This document shows positions 1 to 44,514 of a stretch of DNA of 44,514 nucleotides, piece after piece (position 1 is the stretch's first letter; the number at the start of each line of letters is the position of its first letter). The notes beneath the pieces are model-generated. The model was given only the letters and a program-made list of their open reading frames with translations, had not been told where the DNA came from and did no database searches. Source of the DNA: a virus. The stretch lies in IMG/VR virus record IMGVR_UViG_3300022538_000610; one strand, written 5' to 3'. A program made the translations under genes and the position numbers.

Positions 1-141
1 CCACCGTCTCGCCTTCGAGATGGTCTAAATTGATGAACGTATTCTCTACTTTTCGGACGGTTCCACCACCGGTATACTCATCAAAAACAGAAGTATCTAC
101 TTCCTCGCCGGATATACTCGGTGAAGCTGATGGTGTTGCAG
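1..141. repeat. Terminal direct repeat, copy 1 (identical to 44374..44514); the contig closes into a circle of 44,373 bp
   Basis: Read directly: the first 141 nt (ccaccgtctcgccttcgagatgg...gctgatggtgttgcag) recur exactly as the last 141 nt. The repeat lies inside an open minus-strand reading frame. Confidence 0.95.
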
Positions 142-1585
142 AAGGGCTTCCTGTGGGCGTGGCCGAAGGGCTTACTGAAGGCGAAGCGCTTCTTGAGGGA
201 CTTGCAGAAAGACTGGCTGAAGGCGATGCAGATGGCGTAACACTTGGTGAGGCGGATATGCTTGCTGATAGCGAAGCGGAAGGTGATGCCGAAATACTTG
301 CACTCAGCGAGGCTGATATACTGGCTGAGATTGAGGCCGAGGGTGTACCAGATGGCGAAGCCGATATAGAGGCCGAGGGAGACGCCGAAACGCTTGCAGA
401 CGGTGACGCTGAAGGACTTGCAGACACACTTGCCGACGGTGATGCTGAGACTGTCCTTGATGGACTCGCCGAAATTGACTCTGACGGTGATGCGGAAACG
501 CTTGCTGAAGGCGACGCGCTTGGCGAGGCTGAAGGCGAAGCTGATACAGACGCAGAGAGACTGGCAGAGATACTCGCTGAAGGACTTGCCGAGATTGAAA
601 CGGATATTGTACCAGATGGTGAAGCTGATACAGAAGCCGAAGGCGAAGCTGATACACTGGCAGATGGCGAAGCTGATACACTGGCACTGGGCGATGCGCT
701 TCTTGATGGACTTGCTGATAATGAGGCTGAGGGCGTTCTCGATGGGCTGGCCGATATACTTGCTGAAGGAGAAACTGAAGGGCTTGCCGATATTGAGGCG
801 GAAGGAGTAACTGAAGGCGAGACCGATATAGAAGCCGAAGGGCTTGCGCTTATAGAGGCCGATGGGGATGCCGAGGGCGAGGCCGAGGGGCTTGCAGAAG
901 GACTGGCCGATATACTTACAGATGGACTGACTGAAGGAGATGCGCTTACAGCACCCTCTGCTTGAATGGCTATTGTTATGGTTGTCCATGGTTGAGAGGC
1001 CGTCATATCAAAGGATGCCGTGCCAGTTGCGCCTGCTGTCGCCAAAGACTGATAAGCAGCGCCGCCGCAACAACTACCATAAGTAGAACCACTTTTATCT
1101 ACAGTAATTCCGGTATGACTTGAGGGGTAGCCGGAATCAACTGTTATTGCGTAACTGGCGGCTGCAAACATACGCAGAACTAAACAGTCATCTTTTGTTG
1201 TAGTAGCAGATGGGCAAGCTGGCGTGGCGTCCCAGAATGTGTCATATGTACCTACATTTATAGGATTATCGGCATCGTGGCCGGTAATTCGTAGAATAAA
1301 ACCATAAAATTGTTTGAGGTAAGAATATGTGCTCGTAAAGGTATAACTTGCTGGTTCTGACGAACCTGCGATTTTATAAAAACTATATAAAGTTTGATAT
1401 ATATTAGGCAGTGCAACGTAACGAGTCCAACCAGCAGGAGTATTTATAGGATTAGACCCTTCGGATATTATTACCGCAATAAGTAGATTGTCTTCTGCCA
1501 CTCCAGTTGGTTTGGCTATTGTAATACTTGTTGCAGCGGTTGCTACTTTTGCTTCTGCAAAACTATGATATACTGGTACTGTCAT
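1..1585 (-). CDS. Junction-spanning tail protein, 5' portion (674 aa in the circular molecule): ~212-aa beta-rich N-terminal domain followed by a 280-aa (Ser/Thr-X)140 repeat; continues at 44373..43934
   Basis: ATG at 1585..1583 ([38 protein letters not shown]...). I checked every codon of the third minus frame (plus positions 3m+2..3m+4) from 1585 down to 2 and found no stop. It is missing from the ORF track only because its stop lies beyond the left edge. The frame is continuous with 44377..43934 through the terminal repeat. Confidence 0.8.
107..946 (-). repeat. Coding dipeptide repeat: 140 consecutive (Ser/Thr)-X units (131 Ser, 9 Thr; X = A, P, V, I, L, G, R, E)
   Basis: Codon-by-codon reading. 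Every minus-strand codon whose lowest plus coordinate is congruent to 2 mod 6, from 944 down to 110, is Ser or Thr (e.g. ...[29 protein letters not shown]...). All six Ser codons are used, so the DNA is only a degenerate 6-nt periodic repeat. Confidence 0.9.
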
Positions 1586-1588
1586 TTT

Positions 1589-3805
1589 TTAATCGCTTGG
1601 ACTTGCAGAGGGACTTGAACTTGTCTCCACAAAAGACCTTAGCTCAAAAGTGTTTGTAGTTACATTGCCTATGGTATAATAATTGCCGTTAAGGTCTTCC
1701 ATCCCTTCAACGCCGTCTATATAAACCTGGTCGCCATCGCTAAACCCGTGGTCAGGGGCGGTTACTACGCCAGGGTCGGCGAATGTTATTCCTGTAATAT
1801 CAACAGGGTCGCCACCGTCAAATACCAAGCCGGAATCCACAAAGAAGGAATCCTCTAAATCAACCGATACTCTCGGTTGTAACTGCTCGATACTTCTTAC
1901 GGGAGAGCCATCTACCGTCCTTGCCACGGTAATCCATACTTCGTCTTCTGTATCGCCCGATACTACCGCCACGGATTCGGCATCACCATCACCGCCTAAT
2001 GGGTGTTTTGACCACGCCACCACATCCTGGTCTCTTTCGTAGGTCATTGACAATAAGGAACCATCGGCTAAAGTAGACCATAAAATAGCATCAGGATTTC
2101 TCTGGTAGGCAAAACTTGTAATACCCGTTAAGGTAATATGTTCCGCCAATGCCGACAGGTCTGGCGCTACGAACTTTTGTTTCTCATCGCTGAAAGTCAA
2201 CTCCCTGACTTTGCGGCCTACGTAATCTACAAAAAGCACTGCAGTCCCTACGGGTATGGGTTGAATCTTCTTACTGCCATAAGTGGATTGCTGCCTTACG
2301 TTGAAATTAGTGGGAGTAAGCTCCTCGTCAAGAGAGGTGGCCCTTATCCGCCATTCGCCACCAATAGTGCCCAGAACCAGCGCTTCCAACGCAGACAACC
2401 AACGGATAGCGTTCATTTCGTCGGATGACATTGTAAGCGTAAACGCATCGTCGTCATTAGTTCCCCCCTCGAAATTTTCGAAATCGCCGGAGGCGCTTAA
2501 CCATACCGTCTGGGGTTGATATGTAGTGCCTGCATATACCGCCCTTTCCTCAAAGAACGTAAAGGCGGCGGGATAGCCCCTGTGTGCCGACCACGCACCC
2601 TCATACCATCTTTTAGAGGCAAGGGTAGAGGCAAAGTCGGTCAAGACAGTTGCAGTAACTTGTGTTGGGCTGATATAAGTATCTATACGGACGATACCAT
2701 CCTGCGTGGGATTGTTTACGGTAAGGTCGTGGTGAACCGTTCCGCTTGTTGCAGAAGTTACATTTATTCTATACTGGACATTATCCGCATTCTCTGTGCC
2801 GGTAAATTGAATGTTCCTATCGCTATGTGAAACGAAAGTTCGGTATGTTTCCCAACCCTCTTCGTTTTCGTTTCTTTGCAGTTTGATTGTCATTGCCCAC
2901 GTTCCGTGGGTATTATAGGTGAATGTGCCTTTAACATCTATCGACGAACTTACGCCTGTGGCTGGGGCTATTGAAGTGCCGATTATCTCAGTATTTATTC
3001 TCGGTTGGGTTATTTTGAATAAAGCGCCGGGCAAAGATATATGGCTTGGGTCAAATACGGCAGCCGAGGCGGTGAGGGTTATACTGCCCGTCGTAGCGCT
3101 TGGAGTTATGGTTATATCATCGTCGTTCTCCAAGTCGTTTCTTGGAAGGAATGGCCCTTTGTTAAAGGGTATCGTTGATAAATCAAATGAAGTTGTTGTG
3201 GTTCTCGTTAATTTACGGGGTGCATATTCGGGATGGACAATCCACATTACGTCGGCGGACTGCCGGGATTGCAACTCGAATAAATCCGACTCTATATAAG
3301 GACTTGGGGTCTCTGCTATCGGCTCGTTATTATCGGTAAGGTCGGCCACTACCCAGTCGGTAAAGTTAATAATTGGTTTTTCGTGGTCGCCTGTCTCGGC
3401 ATCATTTGCATCGGACGTATGGGCAACGAGACATCTGTAAATAACACTGGAGTATGTAACGAACTGCCCTATGATATAAGTGGTATCGTCTGCCCAGTTG
3501 GTAGGTGTTGTTGAATCTATCACTCTACCACCATCGTAAAATGCCCTTATATATTGTGGGCCGAACTCTGAAATATAAGCGATAGTATCTGAATACTGGA
3601 AAGATACCAAACGGCTCTTTTCAGAGGCGTTCTTAACATCACCGATATACTTAGTGCCAGGCCGCCTTTCGACGCTGCCGTATATTCTCGGAATGAAATC
3701 CAGCAAGGTTCGGCAGCCCGAAGAATACTTGCCCACGTCGGAACGGGCATCTATCTGGGGACTTAATACACCTGCATTAAAGGATATTAAGGGGATGTTT
3801 GCCAT
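1589..3805 (-). CDS. Tail tubular protein B (T7 gp12)-like nozzle protein, N-terminal and central part
   Basis: 738-aa ORF. The N-terminus FNAGVLSPQIDARSDVGKYSSGCRTLLDFIPRIYGSVERRPGTKY parallels the T7 gp12 N-terminal pattern (GGISQQPD.R...G....N......G..KRP). The C-terminal small barrel VVTAPDHGFSDGDQVYIDGVEGMEDLNGNYYTIGNVTTNTFEL is the E1-FCCH-like insert seen in podovirus tail proteins. The protein ends ...SSSPSASPSD followed by TAA. Confidence 0.65.
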   Translation of the reverse strand: MANIPLISFNAGVLSPQIDARSDVGKYSSGCRTLLDFIPRIYGSVERRPGTKYIGDVKNASEKSRLVSFQYSDTIAYISEFGPQYIRAFYDGGRVIDSTTPTNWADDTTYIIGQFVTYSSVIYRCLVAHTSDANDAETGDHEKPIINFTDWVVADLTDNNEPIAETPSPYIESDLFELQSRQSADVMWIVHPEYAPRKLTRTTTTSFDLSTIPFNKGPFLPRNDLENDDDITITPSATTGSITLTASAAVFDPSHISLPGALFKITQPRINTEIIGTSIAPATGVSSSIDVKGTFTYNTHGTWAMTIKLQRNENEEGWETYRTFVSHSDRNIQFTGTENADNVQYRINVTSATSGTVHHDLTVNNPTQDGIVRIDTYISPTQVTATVLTDFASTLASKRWYEGAWSAHRGYPAAFTFFEERAVYAGTTYQPQTVWLSASGDFENFEGGTNDDDAFTLTMSSDEMNAIRWLSALEALVLGTIGGEWRIRATSLDEELTPTNFNVRQQSTYGSKKIQPIPVGTAVLFVDYVGRKVRELTFSDEKQKFVAPDLSALAEHITLTGITSFAYQRNPDAILWSTLADGSLLSMTYERDQDVVAWSKHPLGGDGDAESVAVVSGDTEDEVWITVARTVDGSPVRSIEQLQPRVSVDLEDSFFVDSGLVFDGGDPVDITGITFADPGVVTAPDHGFSDGDQVYIDGVEGMEDLNGNYYTIGNVTTNTFELRSFVETSSSPSASPSD

Positions 3806-4107
3806 TATGTCTCGTCATATACATTAAGCACCATTGTTTGGTTTGCGATTACAATATCTACTTCTGCTATTATGTCGCTATCGTCGATTTGCGGCTTATA
3901 TTCCCCCCAGCCGACAACGGCCGTACCTTCTTTTATAATTACCAAATCACTCGTTGTGATTGTCGTGGGCGTGCCAAGATACAATCCTGAACCCGCAGGG
4001 GTTTCGGTTAGAGCCGTTCCCGACTCCCTTTCAGTACCAGCAGAAGTATATACTCCAAATGTTAATGTTTTGCCTGTCGGGTAGCCGAAGGTAACTTCGT
4101 TAGCCAT
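3805..4107 (-). CDS. Hypothetical small virion-module protein (100 aa)
   Basis: ORF track. TAATG stop-start overlap with the downstream nozzle gene and an 8-nt overlap with the upstream gene, which suggests translational coupling. Confidence 0.6.
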   Translation of the reverse strand: MANEVTFGYPTGKTLTFGVYTSAGTERESGTALTETPAGSGLYLGTPTTITTSDLVIIKEGTAVVGWGEYKPQIDDSDIIAEVDIVIANQTMVLNVYDET

Positions 4108-4291
4108 TTAGGGACTCCATCTGCGTTGCTATCTGGTTACATCTGGCGGCGATTTGATTTAACTGCTCAACAAGTTTGGCTCGCCTGAGAGTCAACTCGC
4201 CAAGCTGGGCGGCAAGTTCTTTGCGTTTCTGTTTTGTTTCTACGTTTTTGGCCTTGTTTTCGCTGGCTTGTGGTTTCTTATTTTTTGCCAT
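4100..4291 (-). CDS. Small basic coiled-coil protein (63 aa)
   Basis: ORF track. AAGGAGAG Shine-Dalgarno sequence 5 nt upstream of the ATG. Heptad-like sequence KELAAQLGELTLRRAKLVEQLNQIAARCNQIATQMESL. Confidence 0.6.
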   Translation of the reverse strand: MAKNKKPQASENKAKNVETKQKRKELAAQLGELTLRRAKLVEQLNQIAARCNQIATQMESLNG

Positions 4292-4302
4292 TTTCTCTCC
4301 TT

Positions 4303-5526
4303 TTAAGGTGCAAGGTCGGCAATAACAACACCATCGGCGTCATCATCTGTCGGATATGCAGTATGCCCCCTTAATTCGCCGCCCGAATCCACCCATAAAT
4401 AGTAAGGATTACCACCATCGTCATACAATACCAATGCACCAGGTTTGTTATCAGCGCCACCATCAAGAATATGTACTATATTCTCTGTGTCATCTGATGT
4501 GTTTCCGAATAAATAGTCGTGTCCCGTCGCCTCTATATGCAAATCGCCGTCGCCATCGGTGTAAAAATCAGTTTCATCATCAGTATCAGTATGTGTAAGT
4601 CTTAACTGCGGGTCGGTGGTGCTTACTATCTCAACAAAAGTGTTGAATCTATGTCCCGTCGTAGCCCCATAATCCATATAACCATCGGCGAGGGAATCTA
4701 TGTATTCATTTCTATCGTCCTGAGTAAAACAGAGTTTGTCTTTTACAAGGATTTTGCCATTGACTTCGAGTTTATCCTGGGGAGCAACTTCGTTGATACC
4801 GACATTGCCTCCAAAAAAGGCGTTGCCGCCTACGGAATAAATTGCATAGTTGGTTGTGCCAGCGTCTATGTTTGCAATGTAAATACCGTAGTTGGTAGTT
4901 ACGGTGCCGCCATAGGCATCTCCGATATAAAGGCCATAAGCATTGGTTGCAATCATACCAGTCTCTACCTCGGCACGACCGAACATTGCATAAATATTAC
5001 TATTGGTTTTGCCAAGCGAAGGGGTGAAAACCATACCATAAGCATCAGTGTCAACTTCTGGATTTAAAGAACCATCAACGTCCATCAATCGGTCGTCTGT
5101 TATTGCGCTATCATCACCTATTGCTAATTGGTCGCAGGTTATATCGCCTGTTACATTAACATCGCCCGTAGCTGTTATATCAACCCAGGACGGGCTGGCG
5201 GTAGTAGCAAGGGTCTGGTCGAGTGTGCAGTCTGCTGTAACTGTAAGGTCAGCGTGAAGGGCAAGGGTTCTATTTGCGCCGTCAACAGTCAAATTAAATG
5301 TTCTGTTTGCTGCATCATCTTCGTTCCAGAGGATACTTAAATAATGTGATACATCAGTATCATATAAACCAAGACCCGGCGTAAAAACAGCGGAGGTAGC
5401 AACTAATGTGACAGCGGTAACTATACCACTTGTGGTTAAATCTCTTGTGGTGTCTGTCCAATCTATATGCTCGTTGGATTCGTAGCCAGGCAGTAAATCG
5501 TGGGGGATTATAGGGAAAATTTGCAT
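4303..5526 (-). CDS. Tail fibre protein
   Basis: Start moved to the internal ATG at 5526 (MQIFPIIPHD...), which forms a TAATG overlap with the upstream stop and has AAAGGA upstream. Contains the fibre-typical motif GNVGINEVAPQDKLEVNGKI and long Thr/Asp/Gly-rich beta-like stretches. Confidence 0.7.
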   Translation of the reverse strand: MQIFPIIPHDLLPGYESNEHIDWTDTTRDLTTSGIVTAVTLVATSAVFTPGLGLYDTDVSHYLSILWNEDDAANRTFNLTVDGANRTLALHADLTVTADCTLDQTLATTASPSWVDITATGDVNVTGDITCDQLAIGDDSAITDDRLMDVDGSLNPEVDTDAYGMVFTPSLGKTNSNIYAMFGRAEVETGMIATNAYGLYIGDAYGGTVTTNYGIYIANIDAGTTNYAIYSVGGNAFFGGNVGINEVAPQDKLEVNGKILVKDKLCFTQDDRNEYIDSLADGYMDYGATTGHRFNTFVEIVSTTDPQLRLTHTDTDDETDFYTDGDGDLHIEATGHDYLFGNTSDDTENIVHILDGGADNKPGALVLYDDGGNPYYLWVDSGGELRGHTAYPTDDDADGVVIADLAP

Positions 5527-8500
5527 TATTTCATATCCTTTTGTATAAAACAAATGTTAGGATAAAATGCTACAGAACTTACTTTCTCCGTTAGGCAAAT
5601 ATCGTCTATTAGAGTGTGTATTTTATCTATAATTATAGGCTTATAACCTGGTTGTTTTCTGTTATGGCCTATGTCTTCTAAAACGTATATTCCGTTTTTT
5701 GCAAGGTGAGGCCATAAAGTTTCCAAACTTATCACCATAGATTCAGGGTCGTGGCAACCGTCGTCTATAATCAAATCAAATGGCCCGTGCCTGGCAACTG
5801 ATTTAAGAAATTTAACATCGGCCTGGTCACCTACAAACAATTTCAAGTCCTTATTCCTGCGAAGAATCCTTTCCTGAGATACGTCCCTTATGTCTATGCC
5901 GAAAATCTTCGCTTTCGGAAATGCCTTTTTCCACACTAATAAAGAGGCGCCTCGCTGGACGCCTATTTCCAATATCTTGATACGCTCATTGTATAAACCG
6001 TTTAAGTGCCGGTCATACAAATGGGTATAGTTATGATGCCAGTATTTATTGGTAGCCCTGAAACTCATTTTTATAAATTGCTGCACGGCGGCATTTTCTA
6101 TTCTGCCGTTGCTTCTGGCGTCTATTAAGTATCGCCTTTGCTTAAAGTCGGCAAGAGTACTAAATATGCGCACGGGAACTTTTTTATAACCAAGATGTTT
6201 TGCGATAACCAACCTGCGATAACCCCTTATTATTACCCGCTCCTTTTTGTTCTTGTAAGCATCCAGCGGGGTTTTTAGTCCATTGTCCCGTATATCTTCA
6301 TATAACGATATTGCATCCCGCATTTTTTCTTGGACTCGCATTGCGCCTTTGGGGGTCAAGGGGTCTCTTGTGGCAGGGTGGAGATGCTTGACGAGATAAT
6401 TGTAATAAGGCAAATCCTTTAATTCTTCGTCTGTGTATGTTTTACCAGCCACAAGACTCTCAATGAACGGCGAAAAAGTTTTAAGAAATTCATACCCGCC
6501 CCTGGGATTGTCCGGTTGCCTTTTATTAATGTTGTAGTGCTTAATAAAATTGTCATCACGGAAGGTTTTATTTATATCGAACTCCCGAAGTTTGAATTTA
6601 TACAAATACCTGTAGTCAACGCCGTTTTTATAGGTTAAAGTATTTGTTTTTTGCGACAGGATGCTTGCCTGACCCCAATACGGTATAGTAGATACCCGCT
6701 TTCCAGTTGTGCCAGTCCATCCTTTGTGCATATTCTTGTTGTGCCGAATATTTACAATTGGCTGTTCGGTACTAAAAGTCTCCCACTTTCCCCTCTTGAA
6801 AGTTAAAGGACGATTTTTGCCGTGTTCCACACCGTCTTTCCACTCCGGTTTTCCTGCCAATCTATTCCTTAACTCCTTCAGTAAAAACTGGCGCTCTCCT
6901 ATCAAAGAACATTGCGAAGCAGAACTCTTGCGCAGAAAGGACGGTTTTTTCGTATCAAAAATCCAAATATTAGAATTAAAATATGCCCTATCGTCTTTCG
7001 GTGGGATGTAATCGAAATGTTCCGGCGGATATAAACAATCCGATTCGGCAATTGCTACATAAGGAGAGGTTGCTTTTTCTATACCAAGCAGCATTTGCCT
7101 TAATATGTTATGCCCCGAACAACCAACTTTGCCGACACAAATATTTTCGCCGAAATCCAATGGTTCTTGAGAAACAGAAATCAATTCCGCCCCTTTTATA
7201 GACCGTATAAGCTCCTGCCTCGTATATTCGGCGAGCGATTCTTTTTCCTTATTGGCCGTTATATAAACTACCGATATTTTTGACCAGCCGGGCACGGGGG
7301 CGAATTTGTCTATTAGCCATTGGAACTTTTTCTTTGCGTGCGGCCACTTATCGCCTATCCACAATTCTATCGACCGTGCCATAGACTTCGGTTTTTCCCT
7401 GGCACCTAAACTGTAACTCGACTTACCCCGATTCCAGTGGGCATACCAGGTATTCTTATTGACGAGAACCCGACCGCCAGATAGCCACGTCATACAGGAT
7501 ATTTCAACCCCTTCCTGCCCGAATGTTCCGTGTTTTTCATCTAACCCGCCCCAATCCAGGAACTGTTTTCGCCCCATTAACCAATTAGAGCCGGAAATGG
7601 TCATTGTCTCGCCTATATCCTCATCTTTATGTTTTTCGGCGTACTCAGGCCACGCCAGACCCCTTAAACCACCCTTTGGGTCAACGTCCGGGTGCGAAAG
7701 GTAGCGATAAGGGCAGTCTGTCCGTTCCCGACGTTTCCAGTTCTTTGATTCCAGTTCATATCTCATAGCAAGAACGGTATTGCCTGGCCTATAACAGTTG
7801 ATAAGCACCTTATCTATCCCCTCAGCCACTATGCAGTGGGCATCCAGCCTCATCAGATACTTGCCACGAGCCGTTTGCGCCAGCTTGTTAATCATCGGGC
7901 GCATACCAATTCGTTCTTTGCTGTGGCACAAGATAACTCTGGGGTCTTTTTTGAGTTCTGGCGAATAACCGTCTAATCCTACGACAATCTCAAAGTCGGT
8001 CTTTAGTTTGGCAAGGCAGTCGTCAATGGTTCTCTGAAGGTATATTTCATTGCGGGCGGGGATAATCACCGACAATAAAGGATTGGTAGTCTTTGTCTTT
8101 TTTACCTCCCAGGTAGGTACGGGCGCAAACTTCTCTAACAGCCATTTGAAAGACCTTTTCTGCTGCGGCCACTTATCATTCGTCCATAAATCACGAGAGT
8201 ATTTTCTGGCGTTCTCCTGGTCGCTGCCCTTTATCTGGTAGGGGAAAGTAAACTCTTTCGTAGTGCGGAACATATGGGCAAACCATGTCTTCCTATTGAC
8301 TACGTGCCTGCCGCCCGACAGCCACGCCTTACAGCCTACCTCTACGCCAACCTGACCCCAACTGCCGTGCTCTTCGTCCAGGCCACCTAATTCTAAAAAT
8401 CTATCTCTGTGCTGGAACCAGCAGGCGCCAACGCCGTTCATAATATCGACTATATCACCTTTCGCTTCCGGCCTCTTTGTGTACCTGTACCAATATTGAA

Positions 8501-9029
8501 CTTTCAGGTTCTTATCGAAGTACATAAAGTCGGTCTTCTTGTGAAGGCGGGGTTTCCATACATATTCAATTTTCAAAGAGCCTTTGCATTCAGGGCAGAC
8601 GTTTTCTTTGTGCGGGTCGAATTTGTCTTGATAAGACCTACGGCTGCATTTTACGCACACCCAGTCGAAGGCGTGGAGATTGTACATTCTCGGTATTACA
8701 GTCCAGTCGTACTCGCAGTCAGCGGCGAGTTTAATATCGAAGCCCTTATCGAACATTGAATGGCCATCGGTCTTGAGAATATATTTACCTCTGGCCATCT
8801 GGGCGGCTTCGTTTACCGCCCGCCTCTGGCCTACCGGCTCTGTATGATGAATTAGAGTTACTCTCGGGTCGTCTATGATATTGGGGTCAGGCCAGTAGCC
8901 GTCGAGAATAGCGATGATTTCTATATCGCCTTCAGCGGCCTCTAATGTAGATTCTATCGTTTTCTTTAATAGAAACTCATTACGGGCTGGAATAATAATA
9001 CTTATTTTATTATTTGACGTATCACGCAC
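5526..9029 (-). CDS. Multi-domain glycan-building enzyme: two ppGalNAc-T-like GT-A glycosyltransferase domains, a third GT-like domain, a ParB/Srx-like domain and a class I SAM (sugar O-)methyltransferase-like domain
   Basis: 1167-aa ORF with a probable GTG start that overlaps the upstream stop by 8 nt. GT motif pairs: ISIIIPARNE/LSVIIPARNE; DxH in KTDGHSMF/RLDAHCIV; FLELGGLDE/FLDWGGLDE; WGQVGVEVGCKAWLSGGR/FGQEGVEISCMTWLSGGR; TWFAHMFR/TWYAHWNR. ParB-like segment: IIRGYRRLVIAKHLGYKKVPVRIF. Methyltransferase motifs: ILEIGVQRGASLL...IFGIDI...DLIIDDGCHD...IYVLEDI. Confidence 0.8.
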   Translation of the reverse strand: MRDTSNNKISIIIPARNEFLLKKTIESTLEAAEGDIEIIAILDGYWPDPNIIDDPRVTLIHHTEPVGQRRAVNEAAQMARGKYILKTDGHSMFDKGFDIKLAADCEYDWTVIPRMYNLHAFDWVCVKCSRRSYQDKFDPHKENVCPECKGSLKIEYVWKPRLHKKTDFMYFDKNLKVQYWYRYTKRPEAKGDIVDIMNGVGACWFQHRDRFLELGGLDEEHGSWGQVGVEVGCKAWLSGGRHVVNRKTWFAHMFRTTKEFTFPYQIKGSDQENARKYSRDLWTNDKWPQQKRSFKWLLEKFAPVPTWEVKKTKTTNPLLSVIIPARNEIYLQRTIDDCLAKLKTDFEIVVGLDGYSPELKKDPRVILCHSKERIGMRPMINKLAQTARGKYLMRLDAHCIVAEGIDKVLINCYRPGNTVLAMRYELESKNWKRRERTDCPYRYLSHPDVDPKGGLRGLAWPEYAEKHKDEDIGETMTISGSNWLMGRKQFLDWGGLDEKHGTFGQEGVEISCMTWLSGGRVLVNKNTWYAHWNRGKSSYSLGAREKPKSMARSIELWIGDKWPHAKKKFQWLIDKFAPVPGWSKISVVYITANKEKESLAEYTRQELIRSIKGAELISVSQEPLDFGENICVGKVGCSGHNILRQMLLGIEKATSPYVAIAESDCLYPPEHFDYIPPKDDRAYFNSNIWIFDTKKPSFLRKSSASQCSLIGERQFLLKELRNRLAGKPEWKDGVEHGKNRPLTFKRGKWETFSTEQPIVNIRHNKNMHKGWTGTTGKRVSTIPYWGQASILSQKTNTLTYKNGVDYRYLYKFKLREFDINKTFRDDNFIKHYNINKRQPDNPRGGYEFLKTFSPFIESLVAGKTYTDEELKDLPYYNYLVKHLHPATRDPLTPKGAMRVQEKMRDAISLYEDIRDNGLKTPLDAYKNKKERVIIRGYRRLVIAKHLGYKKVPVRIFSTLADFKQRRYLIDARSNGRIENAAVQQFIKMSFRATNKYWHHNYTHLYDRHLNGLYNERIKILEIGVQRGASLLVWKKAFPKAKIFGIDIRDVSQERILRRNKDLKLFVGDQADVKFLKSVARHGPFDLIIDDGCHDPESMVISLETLWPHLAKNGIYVLEDIGHNRKQPGYKPIIIDKIHTLIDDICLTEKVSSVAFYPNICFIQKDMK

Positions 9030-9909
9030 TGCCTAACTGTGAATCTAATCTGCCCCGATTTGACGCCCTTGCCTGATTCCACGTATTAAACGGAATCCGT
9101 CCGGCGTTGCTCTGCTCCTGTCTATCCATTGCCCTGACCTTTGGCATTAGCAACTTGAGGTCGTCTTTAATGGCTTGATATAATTTTAAGTCTTGCGCTA
9201 TTGGCATTACCAGTTTAAGGGCAAGCTGCAAAGTCAGAACCTCTATGAATAGCGGGTCGAAGTCGGTTACGGTAGTTACCTGCTTGGTATACCTTACGTC
9301 TATAGTGCCACCGATTTTACCACTTGCCCCGCTTACACCGCCCACGCCATCATCAGGTGCGCTTGCCAATGTAACTGTGTTCGTATTAGTGTAACCAGTT
9401 ATCTGATACCATCCGATGGTAAGATTCGTACCGGAAGATAAGTAGATGTATTTATCTACCATCGCCTCTGTGAAACCGCCATTGGCCGAAGTCAATATTG
9501 TTATACCAATACCAGCCGTTGCGCCGTCAGTTATACTCAATATAAATTCGGCCTCATCTGAAAGCAGTTCACTGCCTTCAAGGGCATAAGGATAAATAGT
9601 GTTTTGCCTCAATGTGGAGTTGTCTTCATAAACAGACCTGAAGGCAAGAAAATCGGCGGGAAGAATATAACCGTAATTCCATTCAAAGTCGGGTATGCTA
9701 TGCGTTTCAATCTTCGCCCTTGCCCCTGCGAACCGCCACCAGTAAGACCTCAACAGCGCGTCTCTGGTCTGCTCGTAATGCAAGTTGCAAAGGGTAGCGG
9801 TTACATCTGTGCAGGGGTCGGCAGTTATCTGTGCTTCAGTAACTCTCTTTGCGCCAATTCTGCCTAATGCAAGATTGCATATATCAGTTTTGCTATCTGG
9901 AGAAGCCAT
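9022..9909 (-). CDS. Tail tubular protein A (T7 gp11)-like adaptor
   Basis: The N-terminus DICNLALGRIGAKRVTE....LLRSYWWRFA resembles the gp11 pattern VNDILASIGEPPV...IQSRGWTFN. The gene lies downstream of the capsid genes and upstream of the tail genes. Confidence 0.6.
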   Translation of the reverse strand: MASPDSKTDICNLALGRIGAKRVTEAQITADPCTDVTATLCNLHYEQTRDALLRSYWWRFAGARAKIETHSIPDFEWNYGYILPADFLAFRSVYEDNSTLRQNTIYPYALEGSELLSDEAEFILSITDGATAGIGITILTSANGGFTEAMVDKYIYLSSGTNLTIGWYQITGYTNTNTVTLASAPDDGVGGVSGASGKIGGTIDVRYTKQVTTVTDFDPLFIEVLTLQLALKLVMPIAQDLKLYQAIKDDLKLLMPKVRAMDRQEQSNAGRIPFNTWNQARASNRGRLDSQLGSA

Positions 9910-10583
9910 TATATCCCATACCTCCAGCGAGTAATTGCGTGGTCGCTTTTTGCCTCGGCGGCGGAAAACAGTTTGTTGAAAAACATTACATCGTCTATCT
10001 GGCCGTTAAAATAAAGTGAAGGGATATTGGTTGAACCTATATGGAGGTTGTTTGCGTTATCAATATCGTCTACTGCAGCAATGCTCGCTGATGTCGCTTT
10101 GAGAGTTCCATCAATGTAAGTTTTCATTGTATCGCTTCTATCAAAAGTTGCTACAACTCGATGCCATTTGCCATCGTCAAACTCACCTACGGCTACTTTT
10201 GTAACCTCATCTACGCCATCACTTATTTTGAGATAAACATCACCATCAATCAAATAAACCCCATAGCCTTTAGCCGCCCATTTATAAACGAACCATTGGG
10301 TAGCAGCACTTGTTGTCTTGAACGATATGGCGATTGTAAAATCGGTTGTCGTTCCGAAATTCAAAGAGGCGGCACTGGTTACTTGAATATAATCGGCGCT
10401 ACCGTCAAAATCGAAACCCGGATATACCGGCAGGCAAGAAGTTCCAACTACGGTTCCGATATTACCATTCAAACTGTAATCAAAAACCTTGCTTGTGGAC
10501 GTAAACCCTGCCCACAACTTAAAGTGCAGAACGGTATTCGGCCCCGTTCTCGGCTGGGGCTGCAAGTATTTCGCTTTATACAT
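9909..10583 (-). CDS. LamG / concanavalin-A-like lectin-fold protein
   Basis: Typical Laminin_G_3-like pattern: FDFDGSADYIQV...DFTIAISFK...KWHRVVATFD...MKTYIDGTL...LHIGS...YFNGQIDDVMFFNKLFSAAE. AGAGGTGA Shine-Dalgarno sequence. Confidence 0.7.
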   Translation of the reverse strand: MYKAKYLQPQPRTGPNTVLHFKLWAGFTSTSKVFDYSLNGNIGTVVGTSCLPVYPGFDFDGSADYIQVTSAASLNFGTTTDFTIAISFKTTSAATQWFVYKWAAKGYGVYLIDGDVYLKISDGVDEVTKVAVGEFDDGKWHRVVATFDRSDTMKTYIDGTLKATSASIAAVDDIDNANNLHIGSTNIPSLYFNGQIDDVMFFNKLFSAAEAKSDHAITRWRYGI

Positions 10584-10600
10584 TAGAGATTCACCTCTTA

Positions 10601-10957
10601 TTAGATACCCCGCAGAGTTACAGTAACAACCCAGGCGCCGCCAGGGTCGCCACTTGGCAATACGCCAACATCCATAATGCCCGTCAACGGCTCGCTGACA
10701 TTATAGGTGTATGGTGCAGCCGCTACGGCCAGAGCTGCAACAGTCCATATCTCGTTATCGCTATTGTCATCTATTGCCACTGTCGCCGTTACGCCTGCGC
10801 CGGTAACTAAAACAATAATCTTCTGCAGAATGCCGGCAACAGGAATTGCCTGTTTGACTTCCGCATCATCGCCGGAGGCGAAAGTGTATGTTATAACCCG
10901 CTCCCAGACTGGAGCTTCTGTAAATGTTTTTGCAAGTAGTGATGATGTTCCCGCCAT
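10601..10957 (-). CDS. Hypothetical virion-module protein (118 aa, beta-rich)
   Basis: ORF track; AAGGGAG Shine-Dalgarno sequence upstream. Confidence 0.6.
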   Translation of the reverse strand: MAGTSSLLAKTFTEAPVWERVITYTFASGDDAEVKQAIPVAGILQKIIVLVTGAGVTATVAIDDNSDNEIWTVAALAVAAAPYTYNVSEPLTGIMDVGVLPSGDPGGAWVVTVTLRGI

Positions 10958-10959
10958 AA

Positions 10960-11238
10960 TTAACTCCCTTTATGTTTTTCTGGATAGTTCGCTTGGTCTC
11001 TTGCCGCTTCGGTATCAGCAGCAGTAACAGCACCAGGGAACGATAGAGTCCCTGTTTCGGCGGAATCCAAATAAGAGGCAGTTGCGCTAATCTCTGCGTT
11101 TTCAGCAACGAATAAATCAAACATTGCATCGAAATCATCAAACGTCATTCCGCCCCAAGGCTTGTACGGGTTACGCTTTACATACGCCCGCAAAGAATGT
11201 GCTGCGGATGTTGCCCCCGCATTAAAAGTGTTAGCCAT
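10960..11238 (-). CDS. Hypothetical protein (92 aa)
   Basis: ORF track; AAAGGAGAA Shine-Dalgarno sequence upstream. Confidence 0.6.
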   Translation of the reverse strand: MANTFNAGATSAAHSLRAYVKRNPYKPWGGMTFDDFDAMFDLFVAENAEISATASYLDSAETGTLSFPGAVTAADTEAARDQANYPEKHKGS

Positions 11239-11250
11239 TATAATTCTCCT

Positions 11251-11481
11251 TTAATCATCTATTAACTGGCCGTTTTCATCTCTCGGCCATATATTTAGTT
11301 TTGTTTTGCCAAACGGCACGGTAGTCTGTATCTTGGTTGCGTGGGGACACTCCCCGTACTTGGTTGTATATCCCGCCTTGCAAGTCCTTCTGTTGATTTC
11401 TTCCCGAAAGTCTTTTTCGTTGGTATTAAAAGGCACTAATTCGCCATCAGCGGCATCTTTTGCCCGTTCAATTATTTCCAA
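11251..11481 (-). CDS. Hypothetical protein (76 aa), apparent TTG start
   Basis: ORF track. There is no in-frame ATG near the 5' end, and the start overlaps the end of the zinc-ribbon ORF. Confidence 0.45.
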   Translation of the reverse strand: MEIIERAKDAADGELVPFNTNEKDFREEINRRTCKAGYTTKYGECPHATKIQTTVPFGKTKLNIWPRDENGQLIDD

Positions 11482-11651
11482 AACATAAACCTCTGAAAAT
11501 AGACTCTCCAGTTACGTTTTCGCTTTGGCCTTATTTTGTGCCCACAGCTCCTACAAAGATGAAAATATCCCTTATCATCTTGTCGGAGAAAAACCAGATA
11601 CGATTCACATTTTGGGCATTGCGAATTAGGAGCTACTATTTGTCCTTGCAT
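11472..11651 (-). CDS. Small zinc-ribbon protein (59 aa; below the ORF-track cutoff)
   Basis: My translation: MQGQIVAPNSQCPKCESYLVFLRQDDKGYFHLCRSCGHKIRPKRKRNWRVYFQRFMFWK, with CxxC...CxxC. Confidence 0.45.
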   Translation of the reverse strand: MQGQIVAPNSQCPKCESYLVFLRQDDKGYFHLCRSCGHKIRPKRKRNWRVYFQRFMFWK

Positions 11652-11662
11652 TTAGTTCTCCC

Positions 11663-11696
11663 AAAAAGGGATTGAGGGGCCGAAGCCCCCCAATCT
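11663..11696 (-). terminator. Rho-independent terminator after the 259-aa capsid-associated gene
   Basis: On the minus strand: GATTGGGGGGC-TTCG-GCCCCTCAATC (about 11 bp with one mismatch and a GNRA-like/UUCG loop), followed by CCCTTTTTGG. Confidence 0.75.
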
Positions 11697-11704
11697 AAAC
11701 ATCT

Positions 11705-12469
11705 TTAAGCACCAAGTTGCAACATAATCAATGGGCCAGCAACCGCATCGCTGCTTCCTGTCATTATATACCCTGCACGTTGGTAATATGGGTGGCTTGA
11801 TGACATATGCAAACATCCTTGTGAATCAATAACTACATCTTTTTGGTCGGCTGTTACTTGGATTGTCATACCGCCACTAACGTGACACGGACCCCAACTC
11901 TGGAACCAGAATTTTTGGCCTGTAGTCGGGCGTGTAGCAGGAACACCGTGGTAAACGACATAATTATCACCAGGACACATTTCACGATACGGATTCTCAA
12001 ACACATCAACATAATCCGAAGTTGTCAGAGCGTGTTGTAGCGGATAATCAAGGTAGAGTTGCGTATTTGCAGCGCCTGATTTCTCGTTGCCAACTATGCC
12101 TCTCAGAACGCTATTGTTGATAGTCGAATCGTACAAATAAACAAAACCGCCAGCTAAATCATCTTCTGACCGGTCTGCTATCACTATCTCGATAGTACGA
12201 GAGCCAATAACGCCAGCAGTATCATTCGGCGGTGCAGTATAGTTAAGCACCGCTGGTTCTTGGCTTCCACACATATGGTACGATTTTAAGTTGCTAACAG
12301 CATTGCCGTACTTAAATACTCGACCATCCCACATCAAAAAACGAGTACCATAAATAAATCGTTGAGTGGTTTCTACTTGATATGGCCCAAGTTGATAATC
12401 GCCAGCAAAATCCTTCGGTGTTGCGGCCCAATCAAGGGGACGAAATGGGTATTGGAATATCTTACTCAT
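11705..12469 (-). CDS. Capsid-associated protein (possible decoration/cement protein), 254 aa
   Basis: Start moved to the ATG at 12469 (MSKIFQYPF...), preceded by AAAGGA. It lies immediately downstream of the major capsid gene and is followed by a strong terminator. The function is inferred from position only. Confidence 0.4.
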   Translation of the reverse strand: MSKIFQYPFRPLDWAATPKDFAGDYQLGPYQVETTQRFIYGTRFLMWDGRVFKYGNAVSNLKSYHMCGSQEPAVLNYTAPPNDTAGVIGSRTIEIVIADRSEDDLAGGFVYLYDSTINNSVLRGIVGNEKSGAANTQLYLDYPLQHALTTSDYVDVFENPYREMCPGDNYVVYHGVPATRPTTGQKFWFQSWGPCHVSGGMTIQVTADQKDVVIDSQGCLHMSSSHPYYQRAGYIMTGSSDAVAGPLIMLQLGA

Positions 12470-12484
12470 TTTTTTTCCTTTCAA

Positions 12485-13405
12485 TTACACAGTGTCAAGG
12501 GAAATCTCAACCACTGCTGGGCCTTCAACTCTGGTGGCGCCAAGGGACATCTCGACATAAACTTGAGTCGAGTAGTTCTTGTCGTCTCGTTCCGTAATAC
12601 GAACTGTGGGTTCTTCAGAAATTGCGAGGACAATCGCATCCTGTGCAAAAGCGTAACAGGTAGTAGCGTCAGCGTTTTCAGTATCGGCAACAAGTCTTGT
12701 ACTCATAAGAAACTTGAAGCCCATATAAGAATCAATCTGACCCTGTGCTAAAGCCTTTACAGTATTATAATCGGAACTTTTAACCTCTGTGGTATTGAGT
12801 AACTGGTTGATGTTGTACGGGTTAGTTGCAAAATACCTTTGACGTGCGGGGTCAATATCCGCATCGTCAAGTAGTTGCTTACAGGTGAGCAGTTTGGCGA
12901 TAGTCAAGCCTGTCTCTGCACCAGAATCGGTGGTGTTAGAGCCAGCGGCAATGATTGTGCCGTTGTCCTGAACAAGCCGACATTCGCCAACGGCGTAGTT
13001 GTAAATCTCAGTACCTGTGTGCCCACCATAAGCAGAACCGCCCAACGCTGTGATAATCACATCGTCAATCGTACGGTTGAACGCCATTACAGCGTTCTGG
13101 GCGTAAGTTGATTGGGGGTCGATAAGCATTTTGAGCCTATCAACATTGTCAATCAAATCAGCCCAGTTGTAGTCTGCCATCGTCAACTTTCGTCTGGAGT
13201 GCGGAGTGGAGATAAGCGGCGTGTCACCGTGTCGTGCGCCTATCAACTGTGCTTCGGTAGCACCGATGCGCTCAACATACAGAGTATCGCCGGTTACGTC
13301 CTCCATCCTGCAAACCTGACGCAGTACAGACTCCTTCTGCTGGCTTAACAGCAGAATATTGGCCTTGAACTGGTCAACGAAGGCAGTAGTAATCTGAACA
13401 CTCAT
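12485..13405 (-). CDS. Major capsid protein
   Basis: 306 aa. The N-terminal pattern VDQFKANILLLSQQKESVLRQ...YVERIG...RHGDTPLISTPHSRRKLTMADYNWADLIDNVD is the conserved pattern of a widespread podovirus/HK97-fold capsid family. The gene follows the scaffold gene and has a strong AGAAGGAG Shine-Dalgarno sequence. Confidence 0.75.
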   Translation of the reverse strand: MSVQITTAFVDQFKANILLLSQQKESVLRQVCRMEDVTGDTLYVERIGATEAQLIGARHGDTPLISTPHSRRKLTMADYNWADLIDNVDRLKMLIDPQSTYAQNAVMAFNRTIDDVIITALGGSAYGGHTGTEIYNYAVGECRLVQDNGTIIAAGSNTTDSGAETGLTIAKLLTCKQLLDDADIDPARQRYFATNPYNINQLLNTTEVKSSDYNTVKALAQGQIDSYMGFKFLMSTRLVADTENADATTCYAFAQDAIVLAISEEPTVRITERDDKNYSTQVYVEMSLGATRVEGPAVVEISLDTV

Positions 13406-13569
13406 ATCAGACTCCTTCTGCTAAAGTTAAAATGTTTTAACGAGAAGGTTGTCTGATATCAGGCCTACTCTGCATCACGTTGCTAACGAGCGGGTTACCG
13501 CTATTCTTGGGGGCTTCTGTTGAAGAAGTTGTCCCATTACTAATTTAACAAAAAGGGGGTCGGTGAGAC

Positions 13570-14004
13570 TTATCCCTGCTTGTTAAGATACAAAATTGCA
13601 CATTGTAAATTTTCTATATCTTCTTGCAATAAACCAATGCCAGTATTGCAATTGCTACATAGAAGACCACGTATTTTTTCGGTTTTATGGCAATGGTCAA
13701 CGTGCAATGTCTTTTTTAATTCCGTCTGGTGTATACCACAGATAGCGCATTTGCCTTGTTGTTTAGCAAATAATTCGTTATATTCTTCTGTGGTCATACC
13801 ATAACATTGCTTGAGTGCATAATTTCTGGTGCAATGATTGGGATGGGCCTTATTATAAATTTTGCCTTTGGCGTTGATTTTGGCTCGATTTTTTTCTCGA
13901 TACTCCTTATTGTAGGCCTTGACCTTTTTAGAGTTTCTTTTCTTCCACGCCGATACAATCGCTCTATGTTTTTCTGGGTTCTCTTTTCGCCATTTTTCGC
14001 CCAT
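13570..14004 (-). CDS. HNH endonuclease, endonuclease-VII type (free-standing homing-endonuclease-like)
   Basis: CAICGIHQTELKKTLHVDHCHKTEKIRGLLCSNCNTGIGLL matches the Endo VII motif C.iCg....l.vDHcH.tg.vRGlLC..CN.glG. The gene is inserted between the scaffold and capsid genes. Confidence 0.8.
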   Translation of the reverse strand: MGEKWRKENPEKHRAIVSAWKKRNSKKVKAYNKEYREKNRAKINAKGKIYNKAHPNHCTRNYALKQCYGMTTEEYNELFAKQQGKCAICGIHQTELKKTLHVDHCHKTEKIRGLLCSNCNTGIGLLQEDIENLQCAILYLNKQG

Positions 14005-14009
14005 TTCGC

Positions 14010-14849: not shown

Positions 14850-14852
14850 AAT

Positions 14853-15167
14853 TTAATCCTTTAATTCGTTTAACTCACAATCTCTAAAACTACTATAAAA
14901 TCCATCATATCGTCGAACAGAATACCAGAAATTATTTCTTATTTCTTCGATAACCCCTTCGCCGACACAACGGCCATCCGTACCGTTTATATAATCATAC
15001 AATACACGCTGGCCTGCCTTGAATCTCAAGACAAGTTTATCAATAAGACGACTACACAACGGACATCGCTGCTCTGAAGACAAAGACTCTGTTATCCATT
15101 TGCCATTGTCGCCCAAAGCAAGAGAAACTTTTCCGTTTACAAAATCGTTTATCTCTTTTTTTCTCAT
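14853..15167 (-). CDS. Hypothetical protein (104 aa)
   Basis: ORF track; ATGA-type overlap with the upstream gene. Confidence 0.55.
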   Translation of the reverse strand: MRKKEINDFVNGKVSLALGDNGKWITESLSSEQRCPLCSRLIDKLVLRFKAGQRVLYDYINGTDGRCVGEGVIEEIRNNFWYSVRRYDGFYSSFRDCELNELKD

Positions 15168-15421
15168 TTTGCCACTTTCTGTTTCTTTTCGTTTGGGTCT
15201 TGCTTTAGCTTCCTGTATATATGAACAAGGACGCTGCGCTGCCCCTCGTTGCGCATAACGGCCATTGGGTCTATTCTGCCCTGCTGGTCGAGCGGAACAA
15301 TACTAAGATTGAATTTGGCTAATCGCTCTATATCTGCCAGAACCCGCTTACCCTCATCAGAACCAAAGGTAAACCTGTAATCCATGATTAACTGTTTGGC
15401 TTCTTGGTCTCGGTCTTTCAT
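15164..15421 (-). CDS. Hypothetical protein (85 aa)
   Basis: ORF track; 4-nt overlaps on both sides. Confidence 0.55.
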   Translation of the reverse strand: MKDRDQEAKQLIMDYRFTFGSDEGKRVLADIERLAKFNLSIVPLDQQGRIDPMAVMRNEGQRSVLVHIYRKLKQDPNEKKQKVAK

Positions 15422-15642: not shown

Positions 15643-15657
15643 CCTTTTCCTGGCATT

Positions 15658-43933: not shown

Positions 43934-44514
43934 TCATCTTCCTGTTTTGTCAACTCTTGGTATTATCGCCCTTACCGTGCAGGGGAAGGGACTGTCGTTT
44001 GTGATAACAAAGTCGTCTTCAACATTAAATCCGCCGTCGGCGATAACTAATTTCTCTCCTGTGAATAAACCATCGCCCCAATCCGGTATCGTATGCAGAT
44101 TGTCGGTATCGTGGCCGTATTTGGCATTTTTCGTATTCAGAAAACTTATCGTAACCTCTGAAAACTTCTTGATACTGCCGAGCGTAGTTCCCGTTGCCGT
44201 ATCAATATCCAGTCGCATTGGTTTTAATACAGACATATACCGCAACCCCACTACGGCTTTTCTAACAAAGTTATGTGCATGGGGGTCTAATTCCATTAAA
44301 GTAATAGCCCCACCCGAAACGACTTCATCATCATATTCTCTGGTAACATCGTCAACGTCAGTGCCTTGAATAACCACCGTCTCGCCTTCGAGATGGTCTA
44401 AATTGATGAACGTATTCTCTACTTTTCGGACGGTTCCACCACCGGTATACTCATCAAAAACAGAAGTATCTACTTCCTCGCCGGATATACTCGGTGAAGC
44501 TGATGGTGTTGCAG
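43934..44514 (-). CDS. Junction-spanning tail protein, 3' portion: C-terminal ~180-aa domain resembling the C-terminus of gp12-like nozzle proteins (44374..44514 duplicates 1..141)
   Basis: The frame is open from the right edge to the TGA at 43934: ...[48 protein letters not shown]...LFTGEKLVIADGGFNVEDDFVITNDSPFPCTVRAIIPRVDKTGR. The tracked start (GTG at 44377) is only the first start-like codon inside a longer open frame. Confidence 0.8.
   Translation of the reverse strand, partial: ATPSASPSISGEEVDTSVFDEYTGGGTVRKVENTFINLDHLEGETVVIQGTDVDDVTREYDDEVVSGGAITLMELDPHAHNFVRKAVVGLRYMSVLKPMRLDIDTATGTTLGSIKKFSEVTISFLNTKNAKYGHDTDNLHTIPDWGDGLFTGEKLVIADGGFNVEDDFVITNDSPFPCTVRAIIPRVDKTGR
44374..44514. repeat. 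Terminal direct repeat, copy 2 (identical to 1..141)
   Basis: Exact 141-nt identity with the window start, counted base by base. Confidence 0.95.

Follow-up and report, generated by a model that had tools for sequence, protein, structure and literature searches.

The DNA analyzed here is IMG/VR virus record IMGVR_UViG_3300022538_000610, and the window is this whole stretch of 44,514 nucleotides. Its minus strand encodes a 1167-amino acid (aa) multi-enzyme with glycosyltransferase (GT) and methyltransferase modules and, in the same operon, a protein with a long Ser-x repeat. Together they form a candidate system for virion O-glycosylation. An earlier annotation of the same DNA, made without database searches, is referred to as the sequence-only reading. 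The enzyme open reading frame (ORF) begins with a GTG start codon and was divided into six domains (D1-D6).

5526..9029, minus strand: whole multi-enzyme ORF, 1167 aa, overlapping the genes on both sides.
8094..9029, minus strand: D1 (aa 1-312), GT-A domain like the polypeptide GalNAc-transferases (ppGalNAc-Ts), with DxH (KTDGH), WGQVGVEVGCKAWLSGG, and FAHMFR.
7260..8093, minus strand: D2 (aa 313-590), paralogous ppGalNAc-T-like GT-A domain with DxH (RLDAH), FGQEGVEISCMTWLSGG, and YAHWNR.
6690..7259, minus strand: D3 (aa 591-780), divergent GT-A/nucleotide-sugar-transferase fold with an E-x-D motif (AESDCLY).
6345..6689, minus strand: D4 (aa 781-895), mostly helical, packing with D5 and D6 in the model.
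6105..6344, minus strand: D5 (aa 896-975), ParB/Srx-like, with an invariant R-G-x-R-R box (G936, R938, R939).
5529..6104, minus strand: D6 (aa 976-1167), MycE/SpnK-type S-adenosylmethionine (SAM)- and Mg-dependent sugar O-methyltransferase with conserved D1090, H1093, E1118, and D1119.

The two N-terminal domains were compared with each other and with solved structures. Pfam detects two Glycos_transf_2 stretches in the enzyme (2.3e-28), D1 and D2 share ~40% identity, and all of the motif pairs that the sequence-only reading quoted for a paralogous GT-A pair are in the translation. The CxxC...CxxC ribbon that it saw inserted in D1 is a Pfam zinc ribbon at residues ~121-153 and is confined to part of the D1 lineage. 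An alignment of 20 diverse sequences (D1, D2, and 18 homologues) has 32 invariant columns, and the invariant motifs are S..PAR.E, D.H, D..HG, Q.G.E, WL.GG, and W..H..R. Both domains already matched ppGalNAc-Ts in a single-sequence search of the PDB (2e-4). When the D1/D2 profile was run against all PDB sequences, the 14 best matches were all polypeptide GalNAc-transferases (1.5e-15 to 4e-12). These matches cover the full catalytic domain, whereas ordinary GT2 structures align to the N-terminal half only. LDaHC of D1/D2 is aligned to LDSHC of GalNAc-T9, WyaHxnR to hvGHiFR, and GQEGvEiacKtWLsGG to WGGENLELSFKTWMCGG, the Gal/GalNAc-T motif of the ppGalNAc-Ts. The Asp and His of DxH are invariant in the 20 sequences, as is the third metal-binding His (H-x-x-R). 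The earlier assignment to the GT2/GT27 clan is therefore sustained by the top PDB matches and by metal-binding residues that are not degenerate. No Ricin_B match was found in the enzyme by Pfam at E<=1, and another GT-A domain stands after D1/D2. The enzyme has no hydrophobic or transmembrane segment (maximum KD19 = 1.16). Because there is no ricin lectin domain and no membrane anchor, and because Pfam reports generic GT2 only, D1 and D2 are best described as ppGalNAc-T-like and not as members of GT27.

D3 was assigned by fold prediction because sequence searches gave weak or no matches. The D3 profile had no meaningful sequence match in the PDB, and Pfam returned weak GT2 matches around the E-x-D motif in 13 of 25 family members. 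The AlphaFold model (pLDDT 86) matches KdsB, SpsA, a Leptospira GT, and ppGalNAc-T10 in Foldseek (TM ~0.5-0.6), which bears out the nucleotide-sugar-transferase-like fold suspected from the letters. Residues E72 and D74 (numbering within D3) are conserved, and D3 is an optional module across the enzyme family.

The C-terminal modules D4-D6 (residues 781-1167) were modeled as a single compact unit (pLDDT 89, pTM 0.85). D6 matches Pfam Methyltransf_24 at 1020-1120 (1.1e-9) and a PHROGs methyltransferase at 992-1120 (2.9e-21). It matches MycE (3ssm) at 6.6e-22 as a single sequence and at 2.8e-37 as a profile, and an SpnK-type enzyme (8ia9) at 7e-29 by profile. Foldseek with the D4-D6 model placed MycE/SpnK at ranks 1-13 (best 4.5e-15), with a root mean square deviation of ~17 Å over the full-length alignments. 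In MycE, Asp275 and Asp304 are Mg ligands and His278 is the catalytic base (PMC9275233). These residues align to D1090, D1119, and H1093, respectively, and all three are invariant in 21 homologues. The class I SAM sugar O-methyltransferase that had been proposed at the C terminus is thus supported by profile, by Foldseek, and by the conserved Asp/His/Asp. The idea that D4-D5 corresponds to the MycE N-terminal auxiliary domain finds no support in the sequence, as the profile match begins only at the methyltransferase core.

The similarity of D5 to known families is weak. Pfam ParB_N aligns at 908-955 with E 0.12, ParB and Srx structures in the PDB score 1.2e-3 and 0.024, and PHROGs give a ParB-like match at 901-966 (9e-7; phrog_498, phrog_6218). 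The ParB/Srx superfamily has a G-x-x-R-R phosphate-binding box, and the R-G-x-R-R box of D5 is invariant among homologues. The module always precedes the methyltransferase in the enzyme family; MycE/SpnK and the actinophage methyltransferases lack it. Fusions of ParB-N domains to phage DNA methyltransferases are common (phrog_498, phrog_6218), and DNA-glycosylating phage GTs are known. These facts favor a role in hypermodification of phage DNA or another nucleotide-containing substrate, in which the ParB-like module would bind, the GTs would glycosylate the base, and the methyltransferase would finish. We regard this role as highly improbable. The methyltransferase is of the MycE/SpnK sugar O-methylating type with its sugar-binding Asp/His/Asp, not a DNA N6 or C5 enzyme, and the GT domains are nearest to peptide O-GalNAc transferases. 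No HTH (helix-turn-helix) or DNA-binding domain follows the ParB-like box, and the gene lies in the tail module rather than the replication module. DNA modification would also leave unexplained the tight link to Ser-x proteins described below.

The multi-domain fusion is not unique to this phage. Homologues formed 356 clusters at 90% identity (E<=1e-5) and 393 representatives at 50% identity (E<=1e-30), which puts the family at ~390 clusters at the 50% level, and their architectures are shuffled and split. D1-D2, D1-D3, D2-D3, D1-D2-D3, and D1-D3-D2 were all found, nearly always followed by (D4-)D5-D6, and close relatives of the phage carry the same modules as separate genes. Such regrouping of one set of modules, by fusion, fission, and shuffling, is expected when enzymes act in a single pathway. 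With the protein as query, tblastn matched only the methyltransferase part, in actinophages, cyanophages, and huge phages.

The gene of the candidate acceptor follows the nozzle gene and is read across the terminal repeat of the genome.

44374..44514, no strand: direct terminal repeat of 141 bp, identical to 1-141.
1..1585, minus strand: 5' part of the Ser-x protein (213-aa N-terminal domain, then the repeat); the ORF runs on to 43934-44373.
107..946, minus strand: coding stretch of 140 (S/T)-x dipeptides (aa 214-493) with no interruption.
43934..44373, minus strand: 3' part of the Ser-x protein, completing a 182-aa C-terminal domain equivalent to the nozzle C-terminal domain (phrog_376 557-710).
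1589..3805, minus strand: nozzle-type tail protein, N-terminal 80% (738 aa), phrog_376 positions 7-571 of 712 (4.6e-163).

The 141-bp direct repeat shared by its two ends shows that the window is the complete 44,373-bp genome of a podovirus, either terminally redundant or circularly assembled. Read across the repeat, the Ser-x protein is 674 aa long. The sequence-only reading had placed a 140-unit repeat four genes downstream of the enzyme. The repeat has exactly 140 unbroken (S/T)-x units, and its gene is the fifth ORF downstream if a 63-aa ORF is counted. The x residues include A (54), P (41), V (16), and I (15). All six Ser codons are in use (TCA 37, TCG 32, AGT 21, TCT 20, AGC 14, TCC 7), and the coding DNA is tandem-repeated only in patches, which indicates that the Ser periodicity is selected at the protein level. 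At its own C terminus, the nozzle ORF has a short Ser-x tail, SSSPSASPSD (coding 1592-1621), in agreement with the SSSPSASPS tail noted previously. The C-terminal domain of the Ser-x protein matches phrog_376 positions 557-710 (1.6e-20), and in the enzyme-less relatives L065, L066, L064, and L068 the same domain is the C terminus of a single nozzle protein. This detachment of the nozzle C-terminal domain onto the Ser-x protein suggests that the Ser-x stalk is anchored to the nozzle and carries the 213-aa domain at its distal end. The nozzle and Ser-x ORFs are in one frame, parted only by TAA-AAA-ATG (1586-1591, minus strand; …SPSD * K M TVPV…). This junction may be accidental, or it might permit read-through into a fused protein.

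The association of the enzyme with Ser-x proteins was measured in 61 IMG/VR loci that contain an enzyme homologue. A locus was scored as Ser-x positive when a strict S-x run on the enzyme's strand reached 30 units or more, and as full flank if at least 5 kb was present on both sides. A Ser-x run is present in 21/21 full-flank loci. The runs have a median of 116 units (longest 242) and a median distance of 484 nt to the enzyme gene. The Ser-x-negative enzyme loci (n = 13) are each truncated on at least one side. The partner in many loci is a small protein beside the capsid gene with a C-terminal Ser-x tail; the partners differ in their other domains from locus to locus, and the repeat is always present. 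The loci span at least two non-homologous capsid/portal sets, with the capsid type of the window in 8/61 and another in 16/61. Single-linkage clustering by shared neighbors merged 53/61 loci and was uninformative; gene-family counts were used instead.

The converse comparison was anchored on the tail gene upstream of the enzyme. The nozzle as a single query recovered only 7 loci, and an alignment of the gp11-like protein recovered more. Relatives found with this alignment and having at least 6 kb downstream comprise 5 loci with both enzyme and S-x run, 33 with neither, and 0 that are discordant. Some of the enzyme-less relatives have capsid proteins nearer to those of this phage than some enzyme-bearing relatives do. 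Co-occurrence with Ser-rich structural proteins had been set beforehand as the test, and the outcome was 21/21 with the enzyme versus 0/33 without it. A reverse scan used a DNA pattern for S-x coding (TC/WS). Among the 120 stretches listed, most were poly-Ser and simple repeats, 5 were true long S-x loci, and D1/D2 was found in the short flank of 4 of these 5. The enzyme-bearing loci L024 (10938-12077) and L026 (6803-8452) have (SSTP)n-type repeats in place of strict Ser-x alternation, which suggests that the acceptor pattern may vary between lineages.

The same modules also occur on contigs of metagenome-assembled genomes (MAGs). Here the GTs of D1, D2, and D3 type and the methyltransferases of D6 type are each encoded by a gene of their own, and these genes are neighbors. 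The labels of these MAGs are Woesebacteria, Andersenbacteria, Levyibacteria, Patescibacteria, Anaerolineaceae, Sedimentisphaerales, and Gammaproteobacteria. Most MAG loci with enough flank have GT and methyltransferase genes followed by Ser-x proteins of up to 295 units. Unfused GT and methyltransferase genes near Ser-x proteins were seen at L270, L271, L272, L273, L276, and L277, mostly from CPR (candidate phyla radiation)/Patescibacteria. The L271 cluster (CP066693.1, Candidatus Woesebacteria, 400-16225) looks cellular because it lies within a 916-kb chromosome with TatC and ComM flanking it. It also holds a carbamoyltransferase, four methyltransferases, and FnlA/B/C-like UDP-HexNAc (N-acetylhexosamine)-modifying genes, which are the sole hint that GalNAc might be transferred from UDP-GalNAc in alpha linkage to Ser/Thr of a peptide. 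The link between enzyme and Ser-x protein is strong: it holds whichever of the two is taken as the starting point, in viral as well as in cellular settings.

The immediate neighbors of the enzyme gene place it within the structural operon.

9022..9909, minus strand: gp11-like tail tubular/adaptor protein, phrog_394 (5e-35) and phrog_9239.
4303..5553, minus strand: 416-aa ORF, likelier 407 aa from the ATG at 5526, without a family match.

The annotation covered part of the window ORFs. The minus-strand operon begins with the small and large terminase subunits, portal (phrog_332), phrog_3742, the major head protein, and an unknown ORF. It continues with a ConA/Laminin-G-like protein, the gp11-like tail protein (phrog_394/9239), the enzyme, and the 416-aa ORF, and ends with two small ORFs, the nozzle-type tail protein, the Ser-x protein, and internal virion proteins. 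The GTG start of the enzyme overlaps the gp11-like stop by 8 nt, and its TAA stop shares bases with the ATG of the next ORF (TAATG); these overlaps at both ends indicate that the gene is translationally coupled within the operon. The size and position of the ORF next to the gp11-like gene had been read correctly from the letters; its minus strand had gone unstated, and the "tail fibre" label given to the other neighbor has no family match behind it. This 416-aa ORF has no Pfam or PHROG match and no homologue among 68 related loci (L001-L068). In enzyme-less relatives, the nozzle gene comes next to the gp11-like gene, or one small ORF lies in between. A 20-kb megablast query against GenBank phages gave no similar DNA, and no tRNA genes were found in the window.

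The position of the enzyme bears on which protein it modifies. The enzyme and the 416-aa ORF seem to form a single insert between the gp11-like and nozzle genes, and in mycobacteriophages the known acceptors are reported to be C-terminal extensions of capsid and tail-tube subunits (attributed to Freeman et al. 2023). The enzyme might accordingly glycosylate another virion protein, such as the capsid, the lectin-like protein, or the 416-aa ORF product, with the Ser-x protein as a fellow passenger in a mobile tail/head accessory cassette. We consider this unlikely. The association persists across unrelated capsid/portal genes (8/61 versus 16/61 loci) and is also found in a cellular gene cluster without phage genes. 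Partner domains change between loci, and the Ser-x repeat is always kept.

It is well known that phages use GT2 enzymes to alter surface polysaccharides of the host, for example in serotype conversion. GT/methyltransferase clusters accompany Ser-x proteins in at least one apparently cellular locus, so host Ser-x targets may exist. On these grounds, the enzyme could instead modify a host envelope glycan or host Ser-x glycoproteins for superinfection exclusion, receptor masking, or progeny release, and the virion would not be the target. There is little chance that this is its function. The enzyme has neither a membrane segment nor a signal peptide, its gene is translationally coupled in a late structural operon, and no lysogeny genes were seen among the annotated window ORFs. 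The phages also encode Ser-x proteins of their own, fused to virion domains.

These considerations favor virion Ser-x proteins as the target, and each part of the sequence-only interpretation that was accessible to in silico analysis held up. The domain identities, the intact catalytic residues, the operon position, and the two-way co-occurrence with Ser-x proteins are observations, and from them we infer acceptor, donor, linkage, order of action, methyl-capping, and benefit to the virion. The enzyme is probably a cytoplasmic, late-expressed catalyst that adds O-glycans to the Ser-x stalks of virion proteins and caps these glycans with methyl groups. D1 and/or D2 would attach the first sugar to Ser hydroxyls of (Ser-x)n stretches in the cytoplasm of the infected cell, using a host UDP-sugar, which may be a UDP-HexNAc, and a divalent metal held by DxH and the third His. 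The second paralogue and/or D3 would lengthen the glycan by one or two residues. The MycE/SpnK-type Mg/SAM methyltransferase would then O-methylate a sugar hydroxyl and cap the glycan. The main acceptor in this phage would be the 140-unit Ser-x stalk between the 213-aa distal domain and the detached nozzle C-terminal domain, and the short Ser-x tail of the nozzle would be the second. The predicted product is a densely glycosylated, mucin-like tail appendage that is extended and protease-resistant; in other phages, head-associated proteins would carry it.

Several points weigh against this model. The phage is uncultured, and the support for the model comes from sequence and structure analysis. 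No recognizable sugar-nucleotide pathway was seen among the annotated window ORFs. The ParB/Srx-like module is invariant and has no part in the proposed scheme, and the loop that holds Tyr208 in MycE is deleted in D6. D1/D2 are generic GT2 in Pfam and have neither the ricin-type lectin domain nor the membrane anchor of the ppGalNAc-Ts; therefore, specificity for a peptide acceptor cannot be read from homology alone. The co-occurrence counts ignore shared ancestry, and the 5 positive gp11-anchored loci represent ~3 independent phages. The reverse S-x scan rests on the 120 stretches listed, and L202, a long S-x locus on an 8-kb contig, shows no enzyme.

The enzyme was compared with characterized glycosylation systems. 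The natural acceptors of ppGalNAc-Ts are dense Ser/Thr repeats (mucins). The GT27 ppGalNAc-Ts (human GalNAc-T1/T2/T10, Drosophila PGANT9, Toxoplasma GalNAc-T3) are the best solved relatives of D1/D2 across the full catalytic domain (E ~1e-15 by profile) and likewise have DxH, the Gal/GalNAc-T-like motif, and the third His. They differ in having a ricin-type lectin domain and a type II anchor and in working in a secretory compartment, whereas the phage enzyme has none of these and is predicted to be cytoplasmic. Unlike GT27 enzymes, it has two paralogous copies in tandem that are fused to other enzymes.

Serine-rich repeat glycoproteins receive dense O-glycosylation in the cytoplasm from dedicated enzymes whose genes lie beside the substrate gene. 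Gram-positive Fap1, GspB, and Srr1 and the staphylococcal SD-repeat (Ser-Asp) proteins have long Ser-x repeats (SASESAST-like) that form an extended stalk. Initiation in those systems is by GT-B enzymes (GtfA/GtfB, SdgA/SdgB), and export is by the accessory Sec system. The phage locus is similar in encoding long Ser-x repeats beside dedicated GTs. It differs in that all three GT modules are GT-A and the acceptors are virion proteins. The x positions in Ser-x loci are mostly P/A/V/L/I/E with almost no Asp, unlike in SD-repeat proteins. Neither a GtfA/GtfB-type GT-B pair nor accessory Sec genes were seen among the annotated part of the window ORFs. The MycE/TylE/SpnK enzymes are the best sequence and structure matches of D6 and share its Mg ligands and catalytic His. 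Their substrates are deoxysugars of small-molecule antibiotics, and they carry an auxiliary domain of their own at the N terminus. D6 is instead preceded by helical and ParB/Srx-like modules and lacks the Tyr208 loop.

Among viruses, the mycobacteriophages Che8, Corndog, and Myrna are reported to use phage GTs to modify their own structural proteins (attributed to Freeman et al. 2023, Cell Host Microbe 31:1216). Like those systems, the phage locus has GT and methyltransferase domains encoded beside structural genes (gp11-like, nozzle). Actinophage methyltransferases homologous to D6 (~35% identity) adjoin a GT in Omega and McProf, and the gene order in Omega is major head protein gp15, GT gp16, and methyltransferase gp17. 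Omega gp16 was examined as a D1/D2 homologue and rejected (hhalign probability 6%). In contrast to the phage enzyme, the actinophage enzymes are separate small genes with Actinobacteria as hosts, and the acceptors reported there are not 100-300-unit Ser-x repeats. Chlorovirus PBCV-1 A064R, which like A111/114R is a multidomain glycan-building enzyme, is a soluble protein in which a SAM methyltransferase at the C terminus accompanies two GT domains; this methyltransferase places an O-methyl group on the terminal sugar of the virion's glycan (PMC9614988). The likeness lies in at least two GT domains and a sugar methyltransferase in one soluble viral polypeptide. A064R (638 aa, three domains) builds a glycan that is N-linked to the major capsid protein of a virus with a eukaryotic host, whereas the phage enzyme has 1167 aa and six modules including the ParB/Srx-like one. 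No A064R structure was among the PDB matches of the D1/D2 profile (E<=0.01), and a fold-level match of the methyltransferase to a 638-aa viral protein was obtained at rank 12. The locus would be a case of virus-encoded self-glycosylation, a kind already known, and its combination with a Ser-x repeat was not found described. The searchable literature yielded no paper on Ser-x repeat phage proteins, on GT27-like phage enzymes, or on both together.

The family data bear on how widespread such systems are. To our knowledge, virion glycosylation by phage enzymes, which changes antibody recognition, has been shown only for a few mycobacteriophages. The present data suggest that mucin-like sugars, added by the phages themselves, cover the tails or heads of many environmental phages. 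The system appears to be much broader than the mycobacteriophages, as it occurs in at least two phage sets with non-homologous capsid/portal genes and, unfused, in MAGs, at least one locus of which is apparently cellular. It is recognizable by two sequence signatures, a modular enzyme of ppGalNAc-T-like GTs and sugar methyltransferase and a Ser-x repeat substrate, and these make a directly testable enzyme-substrate pair. The enzyme is also a candidate prokaryotic relative of those that initiate mucin-type O-glycosylation. The pairing offers a possible reason for the long low-complexity Ser-rich stretches in phage tail and head proteins that annotation pipelines ignore, and it may be a source of tools for the bacterial production of polypeptides with dense O-glycans and methyl caps. 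We tentatively raise a wider possibility, which falls somewhat short of probable, that the locus is the viral face of an unrecognized prokaryotic mucin-type O-glycosylation system shared by uncultivated bacteria (apparently including CPR/Patescibacteria) and phages of several structural lineages. Cytoplasmic relatives of eukaryotic ppGalNAc-Ts would initiate glycosylation densely along (Ser-x)n stalks, other GT-A enzymes would extend it, and MycE-like methyltransferases, sometimes with carbamoyltransferases, would decorate it. Phages would have fused the pathway into one polypeptide and would use it to clothe tail and head appendages. If this is true, eukaryotes did not invent GT27-like initiation of mucin-type glycosylation, and glycosylated virions are common beyond the actinophages.

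Other genes recur near the enzyme and its relatives. A small stand-alone class I methyltransferase (~200 aa) is present in 30/61 enzyme-bearing loci (for example, L057 6188-6826, L005 11706-12227, and L023 2369-3133), a second methyltransferase-like protein (~173 aa) in 17/61, and an extra GT2 in 9/61. These accessory small methyltransferases and the extra GT2 are absent from the window. Another kind of Ser/Thr-rich extension, a period-3 (STS/STA)n tail, is found on a 257-aa protein at L098 (1139-1909) and L100 (713-1483), which show no enzyme homologue on contigs that are cut just downstream of the gp11-like gene. Directly upstream of the gp11-like gene of the window (9909-10583, minus strand) is a 224-aa ConA-like/Laminin_G_3 lectin-fold protein (6.4e-21). 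It also matches the C terminus of a "virion structural protein" PHROG and may be a glycan-binding component of the virion.

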